A stretch of 10,523 bases of DNA from Candidatus Eiseniibacteriota bacterium (lineage in GTDB: Bacteria > Eisenbacteria > RBG-16-71-46): NCBI GenBank assembly GCA_044222065.1, contig JBGAOA010000013.1:56524-67046 (forward strand), written 5' to 3'. The notes beneath the pieces were generated by a model. The model searched no databases. It saw only the letters and a list, made by a program, of their open reading frames with translations, and was not told where the DNA came from. Each line of letters begins with the position of its first letter. The first letter of the stretch is position 1. A program made the translations under genes and the position numbers. Below, one piece after another: positions 1-9,467 of the stretch.

Positions 1-717
1 CACGTGATTCCGCGCGTGCTCGCCGACATCGGGACGCAGGAAGCGGCGCGCGCCCTCGAACGGCTGCGCGAGCGCCACGACGTGCGCCTCGCGTACCGCG
101 TGCTCAAGGCGCAGAACAAGATCCGCGTGCGGTCGCCCGAGGTCGAATTCGACCGGCGGATCGTGCGCGAGCAGCTCGAGGCCGACGTCCGCGCCTGCCT
201 GTTCGCGTTCGTGCACTACCGCGCCTGTCCGATCGGCGAGCGCGCGAGCGCGGAGCGGCTGTTCTGCGTCGCGCTGAGCGAGCGCGAGGAGCAGGCGCTG
301 AACCGCGTGTTCCGCCGACTCGCGCTCGTCTATCCGCCCGGCGATCTGTTCGCGGCGTACCGCGGCGTGACCTCGGACTCGCCGCGCCTGCGCGGCAGCG
401 CGCTCGAGTTCCTCGAGAACGCGCTGGACGCCGAGGACCGCGCGCTCGTGCTGCCGCTCGTCGAGGGCGGGGGCGACGAGGCGCTGATGCGCCTCGCCGC
501 GCAGCGCTTCGGCCTGCGCGGCGCGGGATTCGAGGGCGCGCTGGCGGCCGCGCTCGAAGGAGACGACCAGTGGCTGCGCGCGTGCGCGCTCTACGTCGTG
601 GGTTCGAGGCGCGAGCGCTCCCTCGCGCAGTCCGTCGTGAGCGCGCTGTCGGCCGCGGACCTCCGCGTGCGCGAGACCGCGAACTGGGCCACGCTCGCGC
701 TCGGCACGTCGAGCTGA
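1..717 (+). CDS. HEAT-repeat protein, C-terminal part (5' truncated by window); resembles the C-terminus of NTT/TLC-HEAT transporter fusions
   Basis: Frame is open from base 1 to TGA at 715-717. HEAT-like units are present: SDSPRLRGSALEFLENAL, GDDQWLRACALYVVG, AADLRVRETANWA. It is followed directly by a cNMP-domain gene, the usual arrangement for NTT-HEAT proteins. Any transporter domain would lie outside the window. Confidence 0.75.
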   Translation, partial: HVIPRVLADIGTQEAARALERLRERHDVRLAYRVLKAQNKIRVRSPEVEFDRRIVREQLEADVRACLFAFVHYRACPIGERASAERLFCVALSEREEQALNRVFRRLALVYPPGDLFAAYRGVTSDSPRLRGSALEFLENALDAEDRALVLPLVEGGGDEALMRLAAQRFGLRGAGFEGALAAALEGDDQWLRACALYVVGSRRERSLAQSVVSALSAADLRVRETANWATLALGTSS

Positions 718-729
718 CCGGAGGATGCC

Positions 730-1260
730 TTGAAGGAAACGCTGACGCTCATCGAGAAGACCGCGGTGCTGAAGAGCGCACCGATGCTGTCCGCCGTTCC
801 GACGGAGGCGCTCGCCGAGATCGCCTCGCGCGCCCACGAGCAGCACTACGACGCGGGCGACCCCGTGCACCGCGAGGGCGAGCCGAACCGCGGTGCGTTC
901 ATGGTGCTCGACGGCGCGGTCGAACTGCGCCGCGGCCGCGCGCTCGTCCGCATGATCACGACCGGGCAGGCGTTCGGCGAGCTGTTCCTGTCGGAGGGCG
1001 AGCCGCACCGCTTCAGCGCGATCGCGAGCACGCACACGCACCTGCTGAACATCACGGCCGAGGACACGTTCGAGGCGATGTTCGACCATCCCGAGTTCGC
1101 GGTCGGCATGGTGCGCTCGATCGCGCGCCGCAACCTGGAGCTGGTGGAACGGCTGCTCGAGCTCGAGACGCTCCTCTCGCGCTTCCACGCCGCGCTGCGC
1201 GAGGCCGGCATCGAGCCTCCGGGCGTGCGCGAAGCGGAGCTGGCGCCGAGCGTGGACTGA
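730..1260 (+). CDS. Cyclic nucleotide-binding (CAP_ED/cNMP) domain protein without HTH
   Basis: TTG start with RBS GGAGGA at 720-725. cNMP barrel motifs: YDAGDPVHREGE..AFMVLDGAVEL..GQAFGEL. N-terminus LTLIEKTAVLKS is typical of HEAT-associated cNMP proteins. The C-terminal helix is coiled-coil-like and there is no Crp HTH. Confidence 0.85.
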   Translation: MKETLTLIEKTAVLKSAPMLSAVPTEALAEIASRAHEQHYDAGDPVHREGEPNRGAFMVLDGAVELRRGRALVRMITTGQAFGELFLSEGEPHRFSAIASTHTHLLNITAEDTFEAMFDHPEFAVGMVRSIARRNLELVERLLELETLLSRFHAALREAGIEPPGVREAELAPSVD

Positions 1261-1275
1261 GGATCGCGGGCGCCG

Positions 1276-2634
1276 TCAGGCGCGATCGCGCGCCGCGGCG
1301 GCCTCTCGCGCGTCGAGCGCGGCGAACTCCGCGCGCGAACGGCCGCGCAGCCACGCGACCTGCGCGATGAGCCCGAGGCCGAGCGCCGCGAACGCGACGT
1401 GCAATCCGGGCCCGCGCCACGCCGCGACGCCGGCGGCGAGCACCGCGATCATCACGCCGAGGTTCAGCGCGATGGACTCCGTGATCGCGCGCGTCGCGCG
1501 GCCGTGCACGATCGCGCCCTGATAGGCGCTCTGGAGCGCGGACAGCGCGGGCAGCGGCACGCCGACCCACGCGCCCGCGATCGCGAGCGGCAGCACGGTC
1601 GTGGGCAGCGCCGCGACGTGCGCGAACCACCACGCGCCGAGCGGCGTCGCGGCGAACGCGAGCAGCCCGAGCGACGTCGCCGCGGCGAGCAGCACCGTGA
1701 AGCGGCGCAGCGCGCGCACGGCGCCCGGGCGGTCGAGCAGCGACACGACGACCTCGCTGAGCGCGAATCCGACGCTGCGGAACGCGAACACGAGTCCGCC
1801 GAGCGCGGGCCACGCGGCGAGCGAGTCGAGCGCGACCGGCATGCGGCTGATCGCCGCCGAAGACAGCGGCATCGAGAGGAAGCCGATGAGCGGCGTGAGC
1901 GCGAGCGGCACGTAGAAGCGCCAGAACGCGGGCGGGGTGAGCGGCGGCTCGACGCGCGGCGCGACGCGCACGACGTCGCGCAGCACCGGCCGCACCGCGA
2001 ATCCCGCGAACGCCGCCTCGCTCACGACGCCCGCGGCGACCGCGAGCGCTCCGGCCGCGATGCCGGGGCCGGCGCCCGTGGCGAGCGCGGCGCCGATCAC
2101 GAGCGCGTTCGCGGCGAGCCGCACCGCCGTGCCCGCGCCGACCGCCCAGCCGCGGCCGTGGCGGATCATCACGCCCTGCTGGCAGCGCCGGTAGGCGATC
2201 GAGATCGTCCACGGCACGAGGATCCGGAACCCGAGGCGCGCGGGCTCCACGACGTCGGCGGGCACGCCGAGCACGCGCGCGGCGACGACGTCGAACAGCG
2301 GCGTGAACGCGACGAGCGCGTGCAGCGCGGTGAACGTGAAGCCGAGGCCGAGCGTCGCGCGACGCACGAGCCGGTACGACGCATCGTCGCGCGCGAGCGC
2401 GGTCGAGGCCGAGAGCAGCAGGATCACGGGCGACTCGATCAGCAGCGCGAGCGGGAACACGACGCCGCCGTAGGCCGCGAGCGAGACGCGCGGCTCGGCG
2501 AGGCGCGCCATGCCGGCCGAGACGAGCGGCAGCTCGAGCCCCATGAGGAGCCAGCTCGCGGCGAGCGGCGCCCACTGGGCGGCCACGTCGCGCACGCGCA
2601 GCGGCGCGGCGGCGGGCGACGCGGCCGCGCTCAC
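1276..2634 (-). CDS. MOP/MATE-superfamily multi-pass membrane transporter, ANKH-like (452 aa)
   Basis: GTG start at 2634 overlaps the upstream TGA (GTGA). About 12 hydrophobic segments fall in two similar halves (QWAPLAASWLLMGLELPLVSAGMARL..SLAAYG and FYVPLALTPLIGFLSMPLSSAAISRM..SLAAWP). The ORF-track extension to 3375 is a shadow of the methyltransferase gene. Confidence 0.8.
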   Translation of the reverse strand: MSAAASPAAAPLRVRDVAAQWAPLAASWLLMGLELPLVSAGMARLAEPRVSLAAYGGVVFPLALLIESPVILLLSASTALARDDASYRLVRRATLGLGFTFTALHALVAFTPLFDVVAARVLGVPADVVEPARLGFRILVPWTISIAYRRCQQGVMIRHGRGWAVGAGTAVRLAANALVIGAALATGAGPGIAAGALAVAAGVVSEAAFAGFAVRPVLRDVVRVAPRVEPPLTPPAFWRFYVPLALTPLIGFLSMPLSSAAISRMPVALDSLAAWPALGGLVFAFRSVGFALSEVVVSLLDRPGAVRALRRFTVLLAAATSLGLLAFAATPLGAWWFAHVAALPTTVLPLAIAGAWVGVPLPALSALQSAYQGAIVHGRATRAITESIALNLGVMIAVLAAGVAAWRGPGLHVAFAALGLGLIAQVAWLRGRSRAEFAALDAREAAAARDRA

Positions 2635-3647: not shown

Positions 3648-5018
3648 ATGAGGCCGCGTCACACGCCGTGGTTCGTGCTCGCACTCGCGCTTGCGCTCGT
3701 GTCCTGCGCCGGGCCGACCGAACTCGCCCGCCGGAGCAACGTCGCACTGCAGGGCGGCGATCCCGAGAAGGCCTATCAGCTCGCCCGCAAGGCGCTCGAC
3801 AAGGAGCCGCAGAACGCCGCGGCGCGCGAGGCCATGAACTCCGCCGCGCGCACGCTCGCCGACGACTGGCGCGAACGCATCCGCAACCTCGCGCTCTCGG
3901 ACACGCTCGGGGCGGCGAAGCTCACGCTCGACTTCGAATCGCTGCGCTCCGAGTTCCGCGCCTACCGCGTGACGCTCGCGCCGGACCCCGACTTCGATCG
4001 CGCCGAGGTCGCGCTGCGCGCGGCCGCAGGGCAGATCTACTACCGCCTCGGATCGAGCGACCTGAAGGACGGACGCCCGAAGCGCGCGTACAGGCGTTTC
4101 GCCGAGGCGACGCGCTACGTCGCCGCCTACGCCGACCTCGACCGCAAGATGCAGCGCGCCTGGGATCTCGCGCAGTCGCGCGTCGTCGTGCTGCCCGTGC
4201 GCGACGAGAACGCCGGCCCGGCGTTCGCGCGCGAGCTGACCGACCGGCTCTACGAGGATCTCGACTCGCGCATCCGGAGCGACCGCTACCGCTTCACGAA
4301 GCTCGTGCCCGAGAGCGAGGTGTGGAGCGTCGTCACGGTGCGCCAGCTCGATCGTCTCGACCGCGAAGGGGCGCTGAAGATCGCGCGCAAGCTCGGCGCG
4401 GACCGCGTCGTGTGGGCGCGCACGTTCGGCCTCACGACCGACACGCGCACCGACAACTTCCACGGACCGATCTGGAAGAAGGGCAGCGTGCGCGACAGCT
4501 CGGGCCGCAGCGTGACGACGTGGACCGAGGTGCCGTTCGAGATGCGCAGCCGCCAGCGCACCGTGCGCGTCCAGTGGGACGTCGAGGTGCTGTCGGCCGA
4601 CGACGACGCCGTGCTCGCGCGCGATCGCGACGCACGCGAGGCCGTCGCGCGCGCGGTCTGGACGTCGTTCCAGCCGCAGGGCGGCGCCGACGAGTACGCG
4701 CTCTATCCGTCCGACTGGCGCGACCGCGATAGGGAGCGCTGCGACTCGATCGACCGCCGCTGGAAGTCCAACTGCGAGGGGCTCACGCTGCCGCGCTTCC
4801 TCGAGCGCGCGAAGCGCGACCGCTCGCGCGGCGAATACCGCCGCGATTACCGCGGCGAGTTCGCCGGCGGCTCGCCGGTGTTCCTGAACGACCTGCCGCC
4901 CGCGGTGGATCTCGCGTACATCGCGCTCGCCGACTTGTGGAAGCCGGTGGACCAGGCGCTCGAGCGCCTCGACGCGCTCGACGACGCCGACGTCCCGGTC
5001 GTGAGCGACGACCTGTAG
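3648..5018 (+). CDS. Lipoprotein with N-terminal TPR-like helices and a CsgG/LpoB/TolB-N-like domain (456 aa)
   Basis: RBS GAAGGAG at 3634-3640 and ATG at 3648. The signal peptide ends in lipobox L-V-S-C20. TPR-like segments: GDPEKAYQLARKALDKEPQN and YYRLGSSDLKDGRPKRAYRRFAEA. Then VVVLPVRD..ELTDRL..ALKIARKLGADRVVW. Confidence 0.75.
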   Translation: MRPRHTPWFVLALALALVSCAGPTELARRSNVALQGGDPEKAYQLARKALDKEPQNAAAREAMNSAARTLADDWRERIRNLALSDTLGAAKLTLDFESLRSEFRAYRVTLAPDPDFDRAEVALRAAAGQIYYRLGSSDLKDGRPKRAYRRFAEATRYVAAYADLDRKMQRAWDLAQSRVVVLPVRDENAGPAFARELTDRLYEDLDSRIRSDRYRFTKLVPESEVWSVVTVRQLDRLDREGALKIARKLGADRVVWARTFGLTTDTRTDNFHGPIWKKGSVRDSSGRSVTTWTEVPFEMRSRQRTVRVQWDVEVLSADDDAVLARDRDAREAVARAVWTSFQPQGGADEYALYPSDWRDRDRERCDSIDRRWKSNCEGLTLPRFLERAKRDRSRGEYRRDYRGEFAGGSPVFLNDLPPAVDLAYIALADLWKPVDQALERLDALDDADVPVVSDDL

Positions 5019-5095
5019 GGCCGGTTCGCGCGATCGAGCCTTCGAACGGCGGCCGGGTCCGAACGCGCGACGTTCCGCCCGCGCGCGGGTGCCGG

Positions 5096-5104
5096 TGGTA
5101 GAGT
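5096..5104 (+). promoter_or_regulatory. Putative extended -10 promoter element (TGnTAGAGT) for the oxidoreductase
   Basis: TGGTAGAGT lies 52 nt upstream of ATG 5157 in otherwise GC-rich intergenic DNA. RBS GGAG is at 5148-5151. Confidence 0.4.
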
Positions 5105-5156
5105 GCGGCCCGCGCGTGGGTGAGGCGATGGGGCCGGCCCCGCGCCCGGAGACCGC

Positions 5157-6383
5157 ATGTCATCCCGCTACCTGATCGTCGGCGGCGGCGGCGCCGCCGC
5201 GTCCGCGATCGAGGGCATTCGCGCGCACGATCGCGACGGTGCGATCACGCTCGTCTCGCGCGACAACCACCTGCCGTACCGGCGCCCGCTGCTGTCGCGC
5301 GACCTGTGGTTCGGCCGCGCGACGCTCGACGATCTCGCGCTCCACGACGAAGCGTGGTACCGCGAACGCGGCGTCGAACTGATGCTGCGGCGCGAAGCGG
5401 TCGAACTCGACACCGAGCGCCGCCTCGTGTGGGACGACCGCGGCGCCGAGCACGGCTACGAGAAACTGCTGCTCGCGACCGGCAGCCGCGCACGGCTGCT
5501 CGATGCGCCCGGCTCGGCGCTCGAGGGCGTGCATTACTTCCGATCGCTCGAGGATTGCCTGTTCCTGGAAGAGCGCGCGAGCCGCGTGCGGCACGCGCTC
5601 GTCGTGGGCGGCGGCTTCATCGCCATGGAGCTGTCGGCGGCGCTCCGGCACCGCGGGCTCGACGTGACGCTGCTGCTCCCCGAGGAGTATCCGCTGCGCC
5701 GCCTGCTGCCGCGCGACCTCGGCCTCCACCTCGCGAGCGCCTATCGCGCGCGCGGCATCGAGGTCATCAGCGGCGAGACCGTCGTCGCGATCGAAGAGCA
5801 CTCCGGCGCTCTCGTCGCGCGCACGCCCGGCGGCAACTACGTGGACACCGAGCTGATGCTCGTCGGCGCCGGCGTCGTGCCGCACGACGAACTCGCCGAG
5901 GCTTCGGGCCTCGAGGTGGACATGGGCATCGAGGTGGACGAGTTCGCGCGCACGAGCGACGCGAACGTCTATGCCGCCGGCGACGTCGCCGAGTTCCCGT
6001 GCCCGCCGCTCCAGCGCCGCATGCGCTGCGAACACTGGCGGCACGCGCTCGAACACGGTTACGCCGCGGGCGCGAACATGGCGGGCGCGAACCTGCCCTA
6101 CGACGCGGTCCCGGCGTTCGACTCGGCGTTCTTCGAGCACGCCTGGGAGGGCGTCGGCGAGCTGGACGCGTCGAGCGTCGTCGAAGAGGTGTGGGACGAG
6201 ACGTTCCATCGCGGCGTGTTGTTCTACCTGCGCGACGAAGTCGTGCGCGGCGTGCTGCTGTGGAACCGGCCCGGGCTCGTCGAGTGGGCGCGCGGACTCG
6301 TGCGCGAGGGCCGGCCGACGACGGTCGAGGAGCGCGCGAAGGCGATTCCGCGCGCCCAGGCCGAGGCGCTCGCGGGCCGTTAA
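5157..6383 (+). CDS. NAD(P)/FAD-dependent oxidoreductase, AIF/ferredoxin reductase family (408 aa)
   Basis: FAD site YLIVGGGGAA, plus PYRRPLLS and LLLATGS. NAD site VVGGGFIAMEL. Also TSDANVYAAGDVA, EHWRHA and C-terminal RGVLFYLRDEVVRGVLLWN. Confidence 0.92.
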   Translation: MSSRYLIVGGGGAAASAIEGIRAHDRDGAITLVSRDNHLPYRRPLLSRDLWFGRATLDDLALHDEAWYRERGVELMLRREAVELDTERRLVWDDRGAEHGYEKLLLATGSRARLLDAPGSALEGVHYFRSLEDCLFLEERASRVRHALVVGGGFIAMELSAALRHRGLDVTLLLPEEYPLRRLLPRDLGLHLASAYRARGIEVISGETVVAIEEHSGALVARTPGGNYVDTELMLVGAGVVPHDELAEASGLEVDMGIEVDEFARTSDANVYAAGDVAEFPCPPLQRRMRCEHWRHALEHGYAAGANMAGANLPYDAVPAFDSAFFEHAWEGVGELDASSVVEEVWDETFHRGVLFYLRDEVVRGVLLWNRPGLVEWARGLVREGRPTTVEERAKAIPRAQAEALAGR

Positions 6384-6412
6384 CGGTTCCGCCGCGGGCC
6401 GCGTCCTTCCCG
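6381..6412 (+). promoter_or_regulatory. Putative autoregulatory ECF sigma promoter (-35 TAAC, 17 nt, -10 CGTC)
   Basis: TAACGGTTCcgccgcgggcCGCGTCCTTCCCG sits directly before the sigma gene. It is 26/32 identical to 8026-8057 and fits the general ECF AAC/CGT consensus. Confidence 0.8.
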
Positions 6413-6414
6413 AA

Positions 6415-6985
6415 GTGGCGACCGATGCGATCGCGCTGGACTTGGACGTCGTCGGGACGGACGACGGGGGATCGCCGGTGACGGCCGACGAAACGACCCG
6501 GCTCGTCCGGGCCGCGCAGTCGGGCGCGACCGAAGCGTTCGGGGCGCTCTACGAGCGCTTCCGTCCGATGGTGCACGGCGTGCTGCTCGCGCGCGTGCCG
6601 CGGGCCGAGGCGCGCGATCTCGCGCAGGACGTGTTCCTCGCCGCCTACGAGCGCCTCGGCGCGCTGCGCGACCCGGCCGCGTTCCCGGGCTGGCTCGCGA
6701 CGATCGCGCGCAACCGCGCGCTCGACTGGCGGCGGAGCACGCGCGAGACGGTCGAACTGCCCGACGACGTCGCGGCCGAGTCGCGCGCGACGGAGGAGGG
6801 CGCGCGCGTGATGGCGCTGCTGCGCGAGCTGCCCGAGGCGTACCGCGAGACGCTCGTGCTGCGGCTCGTCGAGGGATTGAGCGGGCCCGACATCGCCGCG
6901 CTCACCGGGCTCACCGAGGGCTCGGTGCGCGTGAACCTGCACCGCGGAATGAAGCTGCTCAGAGCGGCTGGGAGTCGTGGAATGA
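6415..6985 (+). CDS. ECF RNA polymerase sigma-70 factor (apparent frameshift at about 6961, near the 3' end)
   Basis: Region 2: DLAQDVFLAAY..FPGWLATIARNRALDWRR. Region 4: LPEAYRETLVLRLVEGLSGPDIAALTGLTEGSVRVNLHRG. Start is GTG 6415, or GTG 6478 with GGGGGA upstream. The natural end ERLGVVE-TGA (6962-6985) is in the adjacent frame. Confidence 0.88.
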
Positions 6986-8014
6986 CGCGACGACTATCTG
7001 TGGGACCGCTCGGGCGAACCCGACCCCGAGGTCGCGAAATCGAGGCGGCGCTCGCGCCGCTCGCGGACGCCGGCGCCCCGCTCGACCTCGAGGCCGCGCG
7101 CGCGCGGGACGCGATGCGCGCGGCAGGCGCCGGCGCCGCGCGCGCCGCGCCGTGCCGCGTGGCTCGTGCCCGCGCTCGCCGCGGTGGGCTTCGTCGCCGC
7201 GACCGCGTGGTACCTGGGCCGCGGCGACTCGGCGGGCTACGCCGTCGAAGCGCTCGACGGCGCGCCGACGATCGCGAACGCGCCGCTCGGCGCGAACGGC
7301 CGGCTGCGGCCGGGCGAACGACTCGTCACCGACGGTGCGTCGCGTGCGCGCGTACGCGTCGGCGGCATCGGCTTCGCCGAGATCGAACCCGGCTCGCGGC
7401 TCCGGCTCGTGCGCACGGGCGGCGAGGAGCACCGGCTCGCGCTCGAACGCGGCGCGCTGCACGCCGTGATCGTCGCGCCGCCGCGGCGCTTCTTCGTCGA
7501 GACGCCGTCGGCGACGGCCGTGGACCTCGGCTGCGCCTACCGGCTCGAGGTGGACGCGGCGGGCCGCGGGCTCGTGCGCGTGACGTCCGGCTGGGTGAGC
7601 TTCGAGTGGCGCGGCCACGAGGCGTTCATCCCCGCGGGTTCGGGCTGCGAGACGCGCCCCGGCGCGGGGCCCGGCACGCCGTGGCGCGACGAGGCGCCCG
7701 AACGCTGGCGCGCCGCGCTCGCCGCGGTGGATTTCGAGGGCGACCGCGGCGCTGCGCTCGACACCGTGCTCGCCGGCGCCTCGCGCGCCGACGCGCTCAC
7801 GCTGTGGCACCTGCTCGCGCGGCTCACGGGCGGGGCGCGCGCGCGCGTCGTCGACCGGCTCGCGCTGCTCGCGCCGATACCGGCGGGCGTGACGCGCGCG
7901 GCGATCCTCGAGGGCGACCGCCGCGCGCTCGACCGCTGGTGGGAGGCGCTCGGCTACGGCGACGTCGAGTGGTGGCGGATGTGGCAGCGCTCGTGGGGCG
8001 AGCCGCGGAGCTGA
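6982..8014 (+). CDS. FecR-like transmembrane anti-sigma factor (5' part disrupted by apparent frameshifts)
   Basis: ATG 6982 overlaps the sigma TGA (ATGA), with GGGAG at 6970-6974. N-terminal DDYLWDRSGEPDPEV / EIEAALAPL; TM helix WLVPALAAVGFVAATAWYL. FecR-like beta domain: LVTDGASRARVRV..IEPGSRLRL..LALERGALHA..FFVETPSATAVDLGCAYRLEV..VRVTSGWVSF. Helical C-terminal domain. The intact ORF is 7166-8014. Confidence 0.8.
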
Positions 8015-8025
8015 GGCCGCGTTGC

Positions 8026-8057
8026 TAACGGTTCGCCGGTGCGGCGCGTCCTTCCCG
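8026..8057 (+). promoter_or_regulatory. Second copy of the ECF promoter motif, upstream of the secreted protein gene
   Basis: TAACGGTTCgccggtgcggCGCGTCCTTCCCG has the same two blocks and the same 17-nt spacer as 6381-6412. Confidence 0.8.
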
Positions 8058-8123
8058 GCAACCGCGCCGCGAGGCGCTTCGCTCACCCCGCGGGCTCGCG
8101 CCCGCGCACCGAGGAGGTTCGCC

Positions 8124-8513
8124 GTGAAGCTCCGTTCCGCGCTCGCCACGATCGCGCTGCTCGCCCTCGCCGCTCCGTCGTTCGCCGGCGGCCACGCCAC
8201 GATCCGCGTGGGCGCGCTGCCCACGCCGCTCGTCGCCGGCCGCGACGTGCCGGTGACGTTCACGGTGCACGACGCGGTGTCGTCTCCGCTCAACGACCTC
8301 AAGCCCGTGCTCGTGCTCCAGTCGGGCGCGCGCACGGTGAAGCTCGGCGCGCGGCGCGCGAAGGCGGCGGGCGCGTACGAAGCGCGCGTGAAGTTCCCCG
8401 CGGCCGGCGAGTGGACGCTCACCGTGGAGAGCGGCTACTGCGGGAACACCGCCGTCGTGCGCGGCCTCGCGGTCGCGGACGAGAAGGTGGCGGCGAAGTC
8501 GGCGTCGCGCTGA
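8124..8513 (+). CDS. Small secreted YtkA/FixH-like Ig-fold protein (129 aa)
   Basis: RBS GAGGAGGT at 8111-8118 and GTG at 8124. Sec signal peptide MKLRSALATIALLALAAPSFA. Beta-rich body with GAYEARVKFPAAGEWTLTV. Confidence 0.75.
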   Translation: MKLRSALATIALLALAAPSFAGGHATIRVGALPTPLVAGRDVPVTFTVHDAVSSPLNDLKPVLVLQSGARTVKLGARRAKAAGAYEARVKFPAAGEWTLTVESGYCGNTAVVRGLAVADEKVAAKSASR

Positions 8514-8521
8514 CGCGCGAA

Positions 8522-8563
8522 CGCACGGGCGCGCGGCGGAAGGTCTCGCCGCGCGCCCGTGCG
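8522..8563. terminator. Perfect 17-bp hairpin between convergent genes; probable bidirectional terminator
   Basis: CGCACGGGCGCGCGGCG-gaaggtct-CGCCGCGCGCCCGTGCG lies between the stop codons at 8513 and 8571. There is no U-tract on either strand. Confidence 0.7.
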
Positions 8564-8570
8564 GCGCCCC

Positions 8571-9467
8571 TCAGTTCACGTCCCGCCGGTCCTGGGGATC
8601 GAGCGCGTCGCGCAGTCCGTCGCCGAGGAAGTTGAACGCGAGCAGCGTCAGCGACAGCGCGAAGCCGGGGAACACGACGAGCCACGGGAACAGCGCGAGC
8701 ACGCGCGAGCCATCCGAGACGAGCGTGCCCCACGAGGCGGCGGGCGGCTGCACGCCGAGGCCGAGGAAGCTCAGGAACGCCTCCTGCAGGATCACGGCGG
8801 GCACGGTGAGCGTCGTGTACACGATCACGGGGCCGAGCGTGTTCGGCACGATGTGGCGGAACACGATGCCGGCGTCGCTCACGCCGAGCGCGCGCGCGGC
8901 CTCGACGAACGTCTGCTGCTTCAGGCTCAGCACCTGCCCGCGCACGATGCGCGCCATCGTCAGCCACTGCACGAGCCCGAGCGCGACGAACAGCATGACG
9001 AGGCTGCGCGAGAAGAACACGAGCAGCAGGATGACGAGGAAGATGTAGGGCAGCGAGTACAGCACGTCCACGACGCGCATCATCGCCTCGTCGGTCTTGC
9101 CGCCGCGGTAGCCCGCGATCGCGCCCCACGACACGCCGATCACGATGCTCACGAGCGTCGCGACGACGCCGACGAGCATCGAGATGCGCCCGCCGTACAC
9201 GACGCGCGCGAACAGGTCGCGGCCGAGGTCGTCGGTGCCGAACCAGTGCGCGGCCGACGGCGGCACGGCGCCGAGCGACAGGTCCTGCGCGGTCGGATCG
9301 GGAAACCCGGGAATCCACGGCGCCGCGAACGAGAACAGCGTCATCACGGCGAGGAACGCGCCCGCGGCGACGGCGGCGCGGTTGCGCGCGAGCCGCCGCC
9401 ACGCGTCGGACCACAGGCTGCGCGGCGGCCCCGCGAGCGCTTCACCGGCCGCGAGCGCCGCGCTCAC
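8571..9467 (-). CDS. oppC: Oligopeptide ABC transporter permease OppC (298 aa)
   Basis: GTG 9467 overlaps the oppB TGA. Motifs: SLWSDAWRRLARNR, HWFGTDDLGRD, EAA loop FVEAARALG, EAFLSFLGLG, NFLGDGLRDALDP. Confidence 0.93.
   Translation of the reverse strand: MSAALAAGEALAGPPRSLWSDAWRRLARNRAAVAAGAFLAVMTLFSFAAPWIPGFPDPTAQDLSLGAVPPSAAHWFGTDDLGRDLFARVVYGGRISMLVGVVATLVSIVIGVSWGAIAGYRGGKTDEAMMRVVDVLYSLPYIFLVILLLVFFSRSLVMLFVALGLVQWLTMARIVRGQVLSLKQQTFVEAARALGVSDAGIVFRHIVPNTLGPVIVYTTLTVPAVILQEAFLSFLGLGVQPPAASWGTLVSDGSRVLALFPWLVVFPGFALSLTLLAFNFLGDGLRDALDPQDRRDVN

Follow-up and report, generated by a model that had tools for sequence, protein, structure and literature searches.

A predicted two-promoter ECF sigma factor module with a FecR-type anti-sigma factor and a secreted target in a Candidatus Eiseniibacteriota genome

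We analyzed a stretch of 10,523 nucleotides (hereafter the window) from a Candidatus Eiseniibacteriota bacterium, taken from contig JBGAOA010000013.1 of assembly GCA_044222065.1, a genome of 4,210,817 bases that is 94% complete. The locus holds a gene for an extracytoplasmic function (ECF) sigma factor, a predicted anti-sigma gene and a gene for a small secreted protein with an immunoglobulin-like (Ig) fold, along with two copies of an element that is very probably the promoter recognized by this sigma factor. The features of the module, in window coordinates, are as follows.

6379 to 6405, plus strand: predicted promoter P1, with -35 GTTAAC (6379-6384), a 17-nt gap after AAC and -10 CGTC (6402-6405); predicted start near 6415.
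6415 to 6985, plus strand: ECF sigma factor, Pfam Sigma70_r2 and r4_2 above cut-off; start codon GTG at 6415, which would make the transcript leaderless, or GTG at 6478.
6982 to 8014, plus strand: predicted anti-sigma factor, with a short DYLWD segment at its N-terminus, a single membrane helix (about 7160-7219), a beta domain of FecR type and a helical domain at the C-terminus.
7529 to 7534, plus strand: Gly-Cys codons (Cys at 7532-7534) at the position of the Gly181-Thr182 self-cleavage site of FecR.
8024 to 8050, plus strand: predicted promoter P2, with -35 GCTAAC (8024-8029) and -10 CGTC (8047-8050); predicted start near 8060.
8058 to 8123, plus strand: leader of P2, with two GC hairpins and the ribosome-binding site GAGGAGG (8111-8117).
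8124 to 8513, plus strand: secreted Ig-fold protein of 129 aa, of YtkA/FixH-like kind, starting at GTG 8124; single copy in the genome.

The two copies of the element had been noticed in an initial annotation made from the sequence of the window, and they are as it described. Positions 6381-6412 and 8026-8057 are 26/32 identical with every mismatch in the central 10 nt, and each copy lies directly upstream of a gene, the first ahead of the sigma gene and the second, which begins 10 nt past the stop of the FecR-domain gene, ahead of the gene of the 129-aa protein. The gap from AAC to CGTC is 17 nt in both, and the common -35 reaches one position further left than first noted, giving G(T/C)TAAC. 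A two-copy repeat alone would be ordinary, because autoregulated ECF modules are common. A scan of the whole genome for TAACGGTT-N13-CGTCCTT found exactly 2 matches, both inside the window. When the genome is scored with a matrix made from 38 sites of other genomes, P1 ranks first (27.0 bits) and P2 second (24.2), with the next site at 18.8, and sites of at least 21 bits number 2 in the real genome vs 1, 0 and 1 in three shuffled genomes. The same scan gave no sign of further targets in this genome, where sites below 21 bits are no commoner than in the shuffles. A sigma-70 promoter scan of 5000-8700 found no site. The motif is not among the 20 largest families reported by a repeat finder, because GC-rich chance repeats dominate there. 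On the sequence comparisons given here and below, both copies are very probably the -35/-10 promoter of the neighboring ECF sigma factor.

We considered recent duplication as the origin of both copies and rejected it, since it cannot account for the pattern seen in the family, while local copying is possible. Within-locus identity outside the core at 22 loci was 10.2/24 vs 9.2/24 in permuted pairs (p 0.014), and the 17/24 of the window copies is the highest value, equalled by 1/462 between-locus pairs.

The conserved core is G(T/C/A)TAAC(A/G)-N16-CGTC(T/C), and the form G(T/C/A)TAAC-N16/17-CGTC is found on the module strand in 29/31 discovery loci, missing from L038 and L049. Both positions, before the sigma gene and right after the anti-sigma gene, carry the motif in 10 of the 31; in two others the second copy is degenerate, and at five loci a single copy precedes a secreted gene that sits before the sigma gene. 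At 50 loci with more distant sigmas the TAAC form is upstream in none, with a loose AAC...CGT match in four. Among 20 held-out loci of this phylum, those with at least 190 nt upstream show P1 in 16/17 and those with downstream DNA show P2 in 17/18 (one lies 1 kb on, past an inserted gene), and the sole other match of at least 13 bits is a second copy before a duplicated target. These counts, with the matrix ranks, support the proposal of the initial annotation that the sigma drives its own operon and a separate promoter for the secreted gene. Its proposal to use the GGTTC and CTTCCCG extensions as a family-wide search motif did not survive. They vary among orthologues and are local to this locus, and the proposed search string recovers only this locus because the extensions are not family features.

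The strict pattern occurs 2.9 times per genome in 28 module-bearing genomes of the family vs 0.8 in 61 module-free ones, an excess of about two; a third pattern match in the genome of the window (C104) scores 16.4 bits. The regulon in this genome is predicted to be limited to P1 and P2. In five genomes of other phyla a few distant high-scoring sites lie ahead of genes for exported proteins of FG-GAP, NHL and dioxygenase-like kinds, the FG-GAP gene being behind such a site in two of the five. An in-frame start codon lies exactly 9 nt past CGTC in 9/41 sigma promoters, the window GTG at 6415 included, which suggests leaderless transcripts and serves to place the transcription start; offsets 7-10 hold start codons in 12/41 sigma promoters vs 1-6 in other four-base bins. 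The start that was first predicted near 6412-6415 is compatible with this GTG. The stability of the first 40 nt of the window P2 leader does not exceed that of shuffles (z 0.2), and mean z is -0.91 over 32 P2 leaders vs 0.04 over 41 P1 leaders.

Some further arrangements were seen around these promoters. At L011, L016, L018, L027, L033, L115, L127 and L128 the stop codon of the anti-sigma gene is the TAA of P2, just as the stop of the upstream gene is the TAA of P1 in the window. P2 and the target gene are duplicated in tandem at L128 (457-1700). In the Acidobacteriota loci L020 (near 6650), L025 (near 6329) and L026 (near 7715) a second ECF sigma gene lies just downstream, behind a conserved CCTAAC-N16-CGTCTAAAGAACAGGA that is similar to the module promoter, making a sigma cascade possible there.

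The sigma factor itself is a short protein with regions 2 and 4 only, which makes it an ECF (group 4) sigma-70 factor. It scores 76.8 bits with the superfamily model TIGR02937 (cut-off 42.9), and among the best 25 of 80 NCBIfam families no other curated cut-off, and so none for a named ECF subfamily, was passed. Its nearest paralogue within the genome is 34% identical. The stop TGA at 6983-6985 overlaps the anti-sigma ATG, and ATGA-type coupling of this kind is found in the orthologues. In the window as assembled, though, there are about four frame breaks within 6960-7165, at the junction of the two genes: after 6960, after 6988, near 7038 and a fourth between about 7075 and 7165. The assembled sigma frame has no stop after region 4 and continues to 8028, the final residues of the sigma and the first motif of the anti-sigma sit in the next frame, the next helix returns to the first frame, and the second frame encodes both the membrane helix and the FecR domain. 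A sigma/anti-sigma fusion was rejected, because the FecR domain is read in a different frame from the long open reading frame (ORF) 5971-8028.

Public contigs help to explain these breaks. Two extra bases are present after 6960 in X2, X6 and X7 and after 6988 in X2, X4, X6 and X7, and one extra base near 7038 in X7; these corrections restore the stop/start overlap known from orthologues. The correcting contigs come from four studies and otherwise show 0-4 differences over 150-840 nt (8 runs were compared, four of which did not cover the breaks). Because they restore the frame at three breaks, the breaks are most likely assembly errors. Alternatively, the module could be a true pseudogene in this strain and its promoters relics, as about four breaks in 200 nt, one of them unbridged, might suggest, and the correcting contigs could derive from sister strains. 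Given that contigs from four studies, no more than 4 letters off elsewhere, repair three of the breaks, that the remainder of both genes is stop-free and that both promoters are near consensus, we judge a pseudogene very improbable. The self-contained module of sigma, anti-sigma and target that had been claimed is supported as to gene order and predicted promoters, with the correction that its junction is frameshifted as assembled, a point that the initial annotation overlooked. Because the window gene is frameshifted, analyses of the full anti-sigma protein used the intact L011 orthologue.

The window anti-sigma passes the Pfam FecR cut-off (25.6 bits vs 24). The genome-wide Pfam FecR search missed this gene and is for that reason uninformative about paralogues. 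In the structural model of the L011 protein (mean predicted local distance difference test, pLDDT, 88.5; predicted template modeling score, pTM, 0.76) two short N-terminal helices (residues 4-27) come first, then a membrane helix (51-76) and a beta domain, and the C-terminal domain is helical. A fold search matches residues 103-231 to PupR at Z 15.8 (root mean square deviation (rmsd) 2.4 over 126 aligned residues) and to BDI_1681 at Z 14.8 (rmsd 2.6 over 127 aligned residues); the next match is at Z 6.2. A search of PDB sequences with the anti-sigma profile returned no FecR-type chain, giving only designed helical repeats and noise. The match to PupR stops at residue 231, and residues 231-331 are all-helical at high pLDDT; for this helical cap the fold search gives generic HEAT-like matches only (Z at most 6.2) and no specific family. 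In FoxR, according to the excerpts of that study available, a C-terminal STN subdomain is needed to bind the signaling domain of the receptor (PMC11637429). In the predicted model the helical domain replaces this STN subdomain, the part that binds TonB-dependent receptors.

The beta domain carries a D-L-G-C motif whose Cys is present in 24/24 aligned sequences and in 119/120 top homologues and aligns with T182 of E. coli FecR. Cysteine can drive an N-S acyl shift, as it does in inteins and Hedgehog. A distant FecR-like protein in a module-bearing genome (L201) has Gly-Thr at the cleavage position. FecR and FoxR are reported, in the parts of the sources consulted, to cut themselves at the Thr182 residue by an N-O acyl shift (PMC12036975, PMC9249621). 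A second Cys, which might form a disulfide with the first, is found in 87/120 homologues and the zinc-finger motif HxxxCxxC in 0/120, and no Pfam tetratricopeptide repeat (TPR) match was obtained in two full-length anti-sigmas.

The N-terminal segment of about 35 residues appears to be the part that is tied to the sigma. Its profile gives 23-59 bits on 9/10 genes that follow related sigmas, CpaB fusions included, has one match in the genome of the window, and gives no score on E. coli FecR and at most 5.5 on 280 shuffles. The segment stays paired with the module sigma when the outer domain is swapped. Complex prediction of the sigma with residues 1-45 scored 0.34 vs 0.00 for the best control, with contact agreement of 77% or more and a partner pLDDT of 57 or more, and lends weak support to binding. 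Passes at or below 0.60 included 18/157 solved complexes and both of the 2 mismatches that passed, and a pass of this kind is more often wrong than right unless the complex was likely beforehand. The Myxococcaceae loci L039-L046 (about 5500-6520) encode a related sigma with 48-52% identity, and behind it the N-terminal segment is joined to a CpaB protein of Flp pili (SAF and RcpC); three of these loci have the promoter variant GTTAACACTTT...GCATC. These fusions possibly reflect pilus-coupled sigma control.

The initial annotation had seen no TonB-dependent transducer next to the module, and none was found within 42 kb of it. The genome encodes 15 plug-domain receptors, the closest 42 kb from the module, and has two STN matches, both on contigs without a plug match. 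Among 34 long ORFs of the module neighborhoods (34 of 39 candidates, ORFs of at least 450 aa only) no receptor family was matched and one kinase was found. L109 carries an inserted gene (515-1231, minus strand) between the anti-sigma gene and P2 which, by eye, looks like one for a TonB C-terminal domain. Canonical cell-surface signaling might still operate through an unlinked TonB-dependent transducer; the FecR-type domain, the 15 receptors in the genome and the gene at L109 would fit this. It is hard to reconcile with a model that has no STN subdomain, with STN matches on plug-free contigs and a nearest receptor 42 kb off, with the 0/34 result for the neighborhood ORFs, and with the FecI-type operons not being autoregulated, as the available descriptions have it. 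We give this explanation hardly any weight.

The product of the gene behind P2 has a signal peptide, by eye, at residues 1-21, a mature start of Gly-Gly-His and one Cys. Its match to Pfam YtkA (PF13115; E=4e-4, 21.3 bits) is below the cut-off of 25.9, and the L016 orthologue, 58% identical to it, reaches 32.4 bits. The model (pLDDT 87.9) is an Ig-like sandwich whose fold matches are tied at Z 10-11.5 among complement, CrdA, filamin and invasin domains. The family comprises 1,695 representatives at E at most 0.001. A CxxCH motif in a cytochrome c-like tail is found in 55 of the best 150 (for example P0155, P0159 and P0171), and 3/3 scanned CxxCH representatives match Pfam cytochrome c, so the Ig domain is often fused to a predicted monoheme cytochrome c domain. 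Invariant positions in the alignment are limited to the Gly-Gly mature start and a P-x-x-G-x-W motif. The same slot elsewhere holds YceI, NHL, DUF4252 or unnamed exported proteins, with DUF4252 in 1/20 target proteins scanned (L024, at +2 of an orthologous sigma). The earlier description of one secreted YtkA-like target is right in that P2 precedes such a gene and too narrow in that this is only one of several interchangeable secreted targets. Since unrelated targets occupy one slot, we argue that the target belongs to the output of the circuit and not to its sensor, and that the response is one of the envelope in general.

Other genes around the modules were recorded. A secreted family of 213-240 aa with GPPLxCxPFxIG after the signal peptide (L023:6592-7230, L036:6651-7310, L138, L139) is predicted to be driven by the module promoter in several phyla and has no Pfam match in the two scanned. 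A secreted HEWGTFTS family of about 400 aa (L022:3653-4819, L034:3665-4933, L035, L042, L137) is predicted to be co-transcribed with the module and has no Pfam match in the three scanned. At L130 (4950-6910) Rieske-like and cytochrome b/c genes directly follow the anti-sigma gene, with no P2.

Two other roles for the target can be weighed with these data. The first keeps the wiring but takes copper or some other metal as the signal, with the secreted protein chaperoning or buffering metal in connection with the assembly of respiratory enzymes. The mature Gly-Gly-His, which we take to be an ATCUN-type (amino-terminal copper and nickel binding) motif, would be in line with this, but its His is not conserved (R, Q, A, P or L in orthologues), GGH is found in 6/150 representatives only and the mature protein has no Met. 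H. pylori CrdA is among the tied best fold matches (Z 11.0, rmsd 2.2, 89 aligned) and is a weak sequence match (E 0.059), but it shares its rank with the complement, filamin and invasin Ig domains. The likeness to YtkA/FixH, the CxxCH tails with their cytochrome c matches, and the role of B. subtilis YtkA (CtaK) in CuA assembly, as given in the available part of one report (PMC9145763), speak in the same direction. As the same sensor drives unrelated targets at other loci, we regard a metal signal as unlikely. The second possibility is that the target acts as a co-sensor that binds the helical cap, closing a feedback loop in place of a TonB-dependent receptor. HEAT-like folds usually bind proteins, the cap occupies the place of the receptor-binding STN subdomain of FecR-type proteins, and all driven genes examined look exported. 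One conserved sensor is nevertheless paired with structurally unrelated targets, which disfavors a specific partner, and we find this role improbable.

The mechanism that we favor, and think rather likely as a whole, is an autoregulated, two-promoter envelope-response switch that is independent of a receptor and in which the sigma is freed by proteolysis. The sigma would transcribe its own sigma/anti-sigma operon from P1 and, separately, one secreted Ig-fold protein from P2. At rest the N-terminal segment of the anti-sigma would tether the sigma to the membrane. Its outer FecR-type domain may undergo self-cleavage at Gly-Cys through an N-to-S acyl shift, much as FecR and FoxR are cut at Gly-Thr, and the pieces would stay associated. 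Periplasmic stress acting on the beta domain or on the helical cap could loosen them, whereupon proteases of the Prc/CtpA and RseP types would complete the cleavage and the released sigma would fire P1 and P2. The genome has one M50 and seven S41 protease matches. The weakest step is the trigger. Damage to the envelope, or else an oxidative or thiol-reactive insult, is the most likely candidate, ahead of an iron carrier, but at somewhat less than even chances. A bolder view, which we consider doubtful, is that of a multi-phylum ECF group, set apart by descriptions only, in which the self-cleaving FecR domain has been repurposed as a receptor-independent thiol switch with an invariant Cys nucleophile. 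The Cys would then form a thioester or a free N-terminal Cys, its periplasmic oxidation or modification would gate proteolysis, and the sigma-binding segment would be a portable plug for varied sensors (FecR-helical, CpaB pilus domain, others) and secreted targets.

Several points weigh against the favored mechanism and the promoter assignment under it. The matrix training sites were chosen by pattern, and thus only the own-genome and held-out scans are independent, and the held-out loci are close kin. P2 is not universal: among 12 metagenome loci with matches it is present in L135 only, and at least 5 of the 12 have no P2 after the anti-sigma gene; several loci end early, and in two of the 12 the promoter lies ahead of a target gene placed upstream. 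No listed contig bridges the fourth frame break, and the correcting contigs are shallow (depth 2.5-4.5). In the profile alignment the overall match to FecR is weak (probability 8.7, E 0.004), so the equivalence of the Cys with T182 leans on the fold match. Finally, the targets (YtkA-like, YceI, NHL, FG-GAP, dioxygenase-like and unnamed families) share export and no single function.

An FAD/NAD oxidoreductase gene (5157 to 6383, plus strand; Pfam Pyr_redox_2 E=6e-56), whose stop TAA doubles as the TAA of P1, is probably outside the module; in a synteny search over all fetched loci it adjoins the module in the closest relative, L135, only. Synteny in L135 also extends to a predicted lipoprotein with TPR (3648-5018, plus strand). 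A multi-pass membrane protein (1276-2631, minus strand) has no Pfam match. On the other side, an 18-bp hairpin at 8522 to 8563 (-49.3 kcal/mol for 8514-8575) lies between the secreted gene and convergent ABC permease genes and is likely a transcript boundary; it has no T-run and a terminator scan made no call there. Six RNA runs contain small shares of the locus (0.07-0.23).

The module is present in 29/206 genomes searched in the phylum, and 28 of those 29 belong to the family of the window. Records whose titles name Acidobacteriota, myxobacteria, Planctomycetota, Gemmatimonadaceae or Pseudoxanthomonas mexicana (L036) contain it as well. Of the orthologues overall, most are labelled Eisenbacteria, Acidobacteriota, myxobacteria or Planctomycetota, and one is from Pseudoxanthomonas. 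Anti-sigma proteins from genomes of the window's family carry the source label Candidatus Eisenbacteria, and P0016 is identical to the L011 protein. The order promoter, sigma, anti-sigma, promoter, secreted gene is repeated in relatives labelled Ca. Eisenbacteria, in Acidobacteriota and in Pseudoxanthomonas, and the secreted gene varies. The anti-sigma family gave 3,875 profile matches among 8,000 scored candidates, a count that takes in more distant FecR proteins.

Our literature search, on Eisenbacteria sigma factors, YtkA-linked ECF factors, GTTAAC/CGTC promoters and self-cleavage of FecR at cysteine, found nothing about this family (subscription journals were mostly outside its coverage). 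For a large family in which we found no studied member, the module offers a defined promoter, a regulon predicted to have two sites, and Pseudoxanthomonas mexicana as a cultured host. This makes it testable how FecR-like anti-sigmas without a TonB-dependent receptor get their signal, and what role the self-cleavage site plays when the nucleophile is cysteine. A FecR-type sensor without a receptor suggests an unstudied route of envelope sensing, and a sigma without a close paralogue, together with a rare promoter, could serve as an orthogonal switch.

Compared with known systems, the module can be set beside FecI/FecR, FoxI/FoxR and PupI/PupR (ECF243; also ECF239, 240 and 242). Common to both are a sigma with a coupled single-pass regulator and, after the one membrane helix, a periplasmic beta-solenoid with the PupR fold (Z 15.8) whose self-cleavage turn has a Gly. 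The module departs from FecI/FecR signaling in four features that define it. Here the cleavage site has Cys rather than Thr (Gly-Cys in 119/120 homologues), a helical cap stands in for the STN subdomain, the +2 gene encodes a small secreted protein instead of a TonB-dependent receptor, and a conserved, predicted autoregulatory promoter is present whereas the FecI-type operon is not autoregulated. The profile of the N-terminal segment, moreover, gives no score on E. coli FecR. The target resembles YtkA (CtaK), FixH and CrdA as a small exported beta-sandwich, but the window protein is below the Pfam cut-off and has no conserved His/Met metal site; unlike in CtaK-type copper chaperones, the alignment has neither conserved His/Met ligands nor a lipobox Cys.

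By description only, in the excerpts available of the 2021 ECF classification (PMC7826278), none of the groups ECF35, 46, 120, 229, 239-243 and 267 fits the module. ECF267 has a FecR-like anti-sigma and is stated there to have no TonB-dependent receptor, and ECF46 has a FecR-like anti-sigma with no receptor described; ECF267 differs in its Sorangium/Chondromyces hosts, FecR-TPR architecture and nearby kinases, ECF46 in its FecR-LamG architecture, and both groups are described as having no conserved promoter. ECF120 (PG0985 type) is alike in its TGTAAC-like -35, CGTC -10, autoregulation and secreted DUF4252 protein at +2, seen here at L024, but it is given as restricted to Bacteroidetes, with zinc-finger or DUF3379 anti-sigmas, and none of our 120 homologues has the zinc-finger motif. 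In logic and promoter, Pseudomonas aeruginosa SbrI/SbrR/MuiA (ECF35s1) comes closest. The description of ECF35 confines the group to Proteobacteria, gives it anti-sigmas of TPR type and DUF3520 neighbors and, in these excerpts, mentions no FecR domain; A/G follows TAAC here in 38/38 training sites, compared to TAACCCG there. As far as the consulted parts of the sources go, the SbrI promoter has TAACCCG and CGTCT elements, the anti-sigma has one membrane helix, and the sigma drives muiA with a link to envelope stress (PMC7826278, PMC10418997). Both systems share a small envelope-stress regulon, predicted in our case, and the core TAAC/CGTC is common to both promoters.

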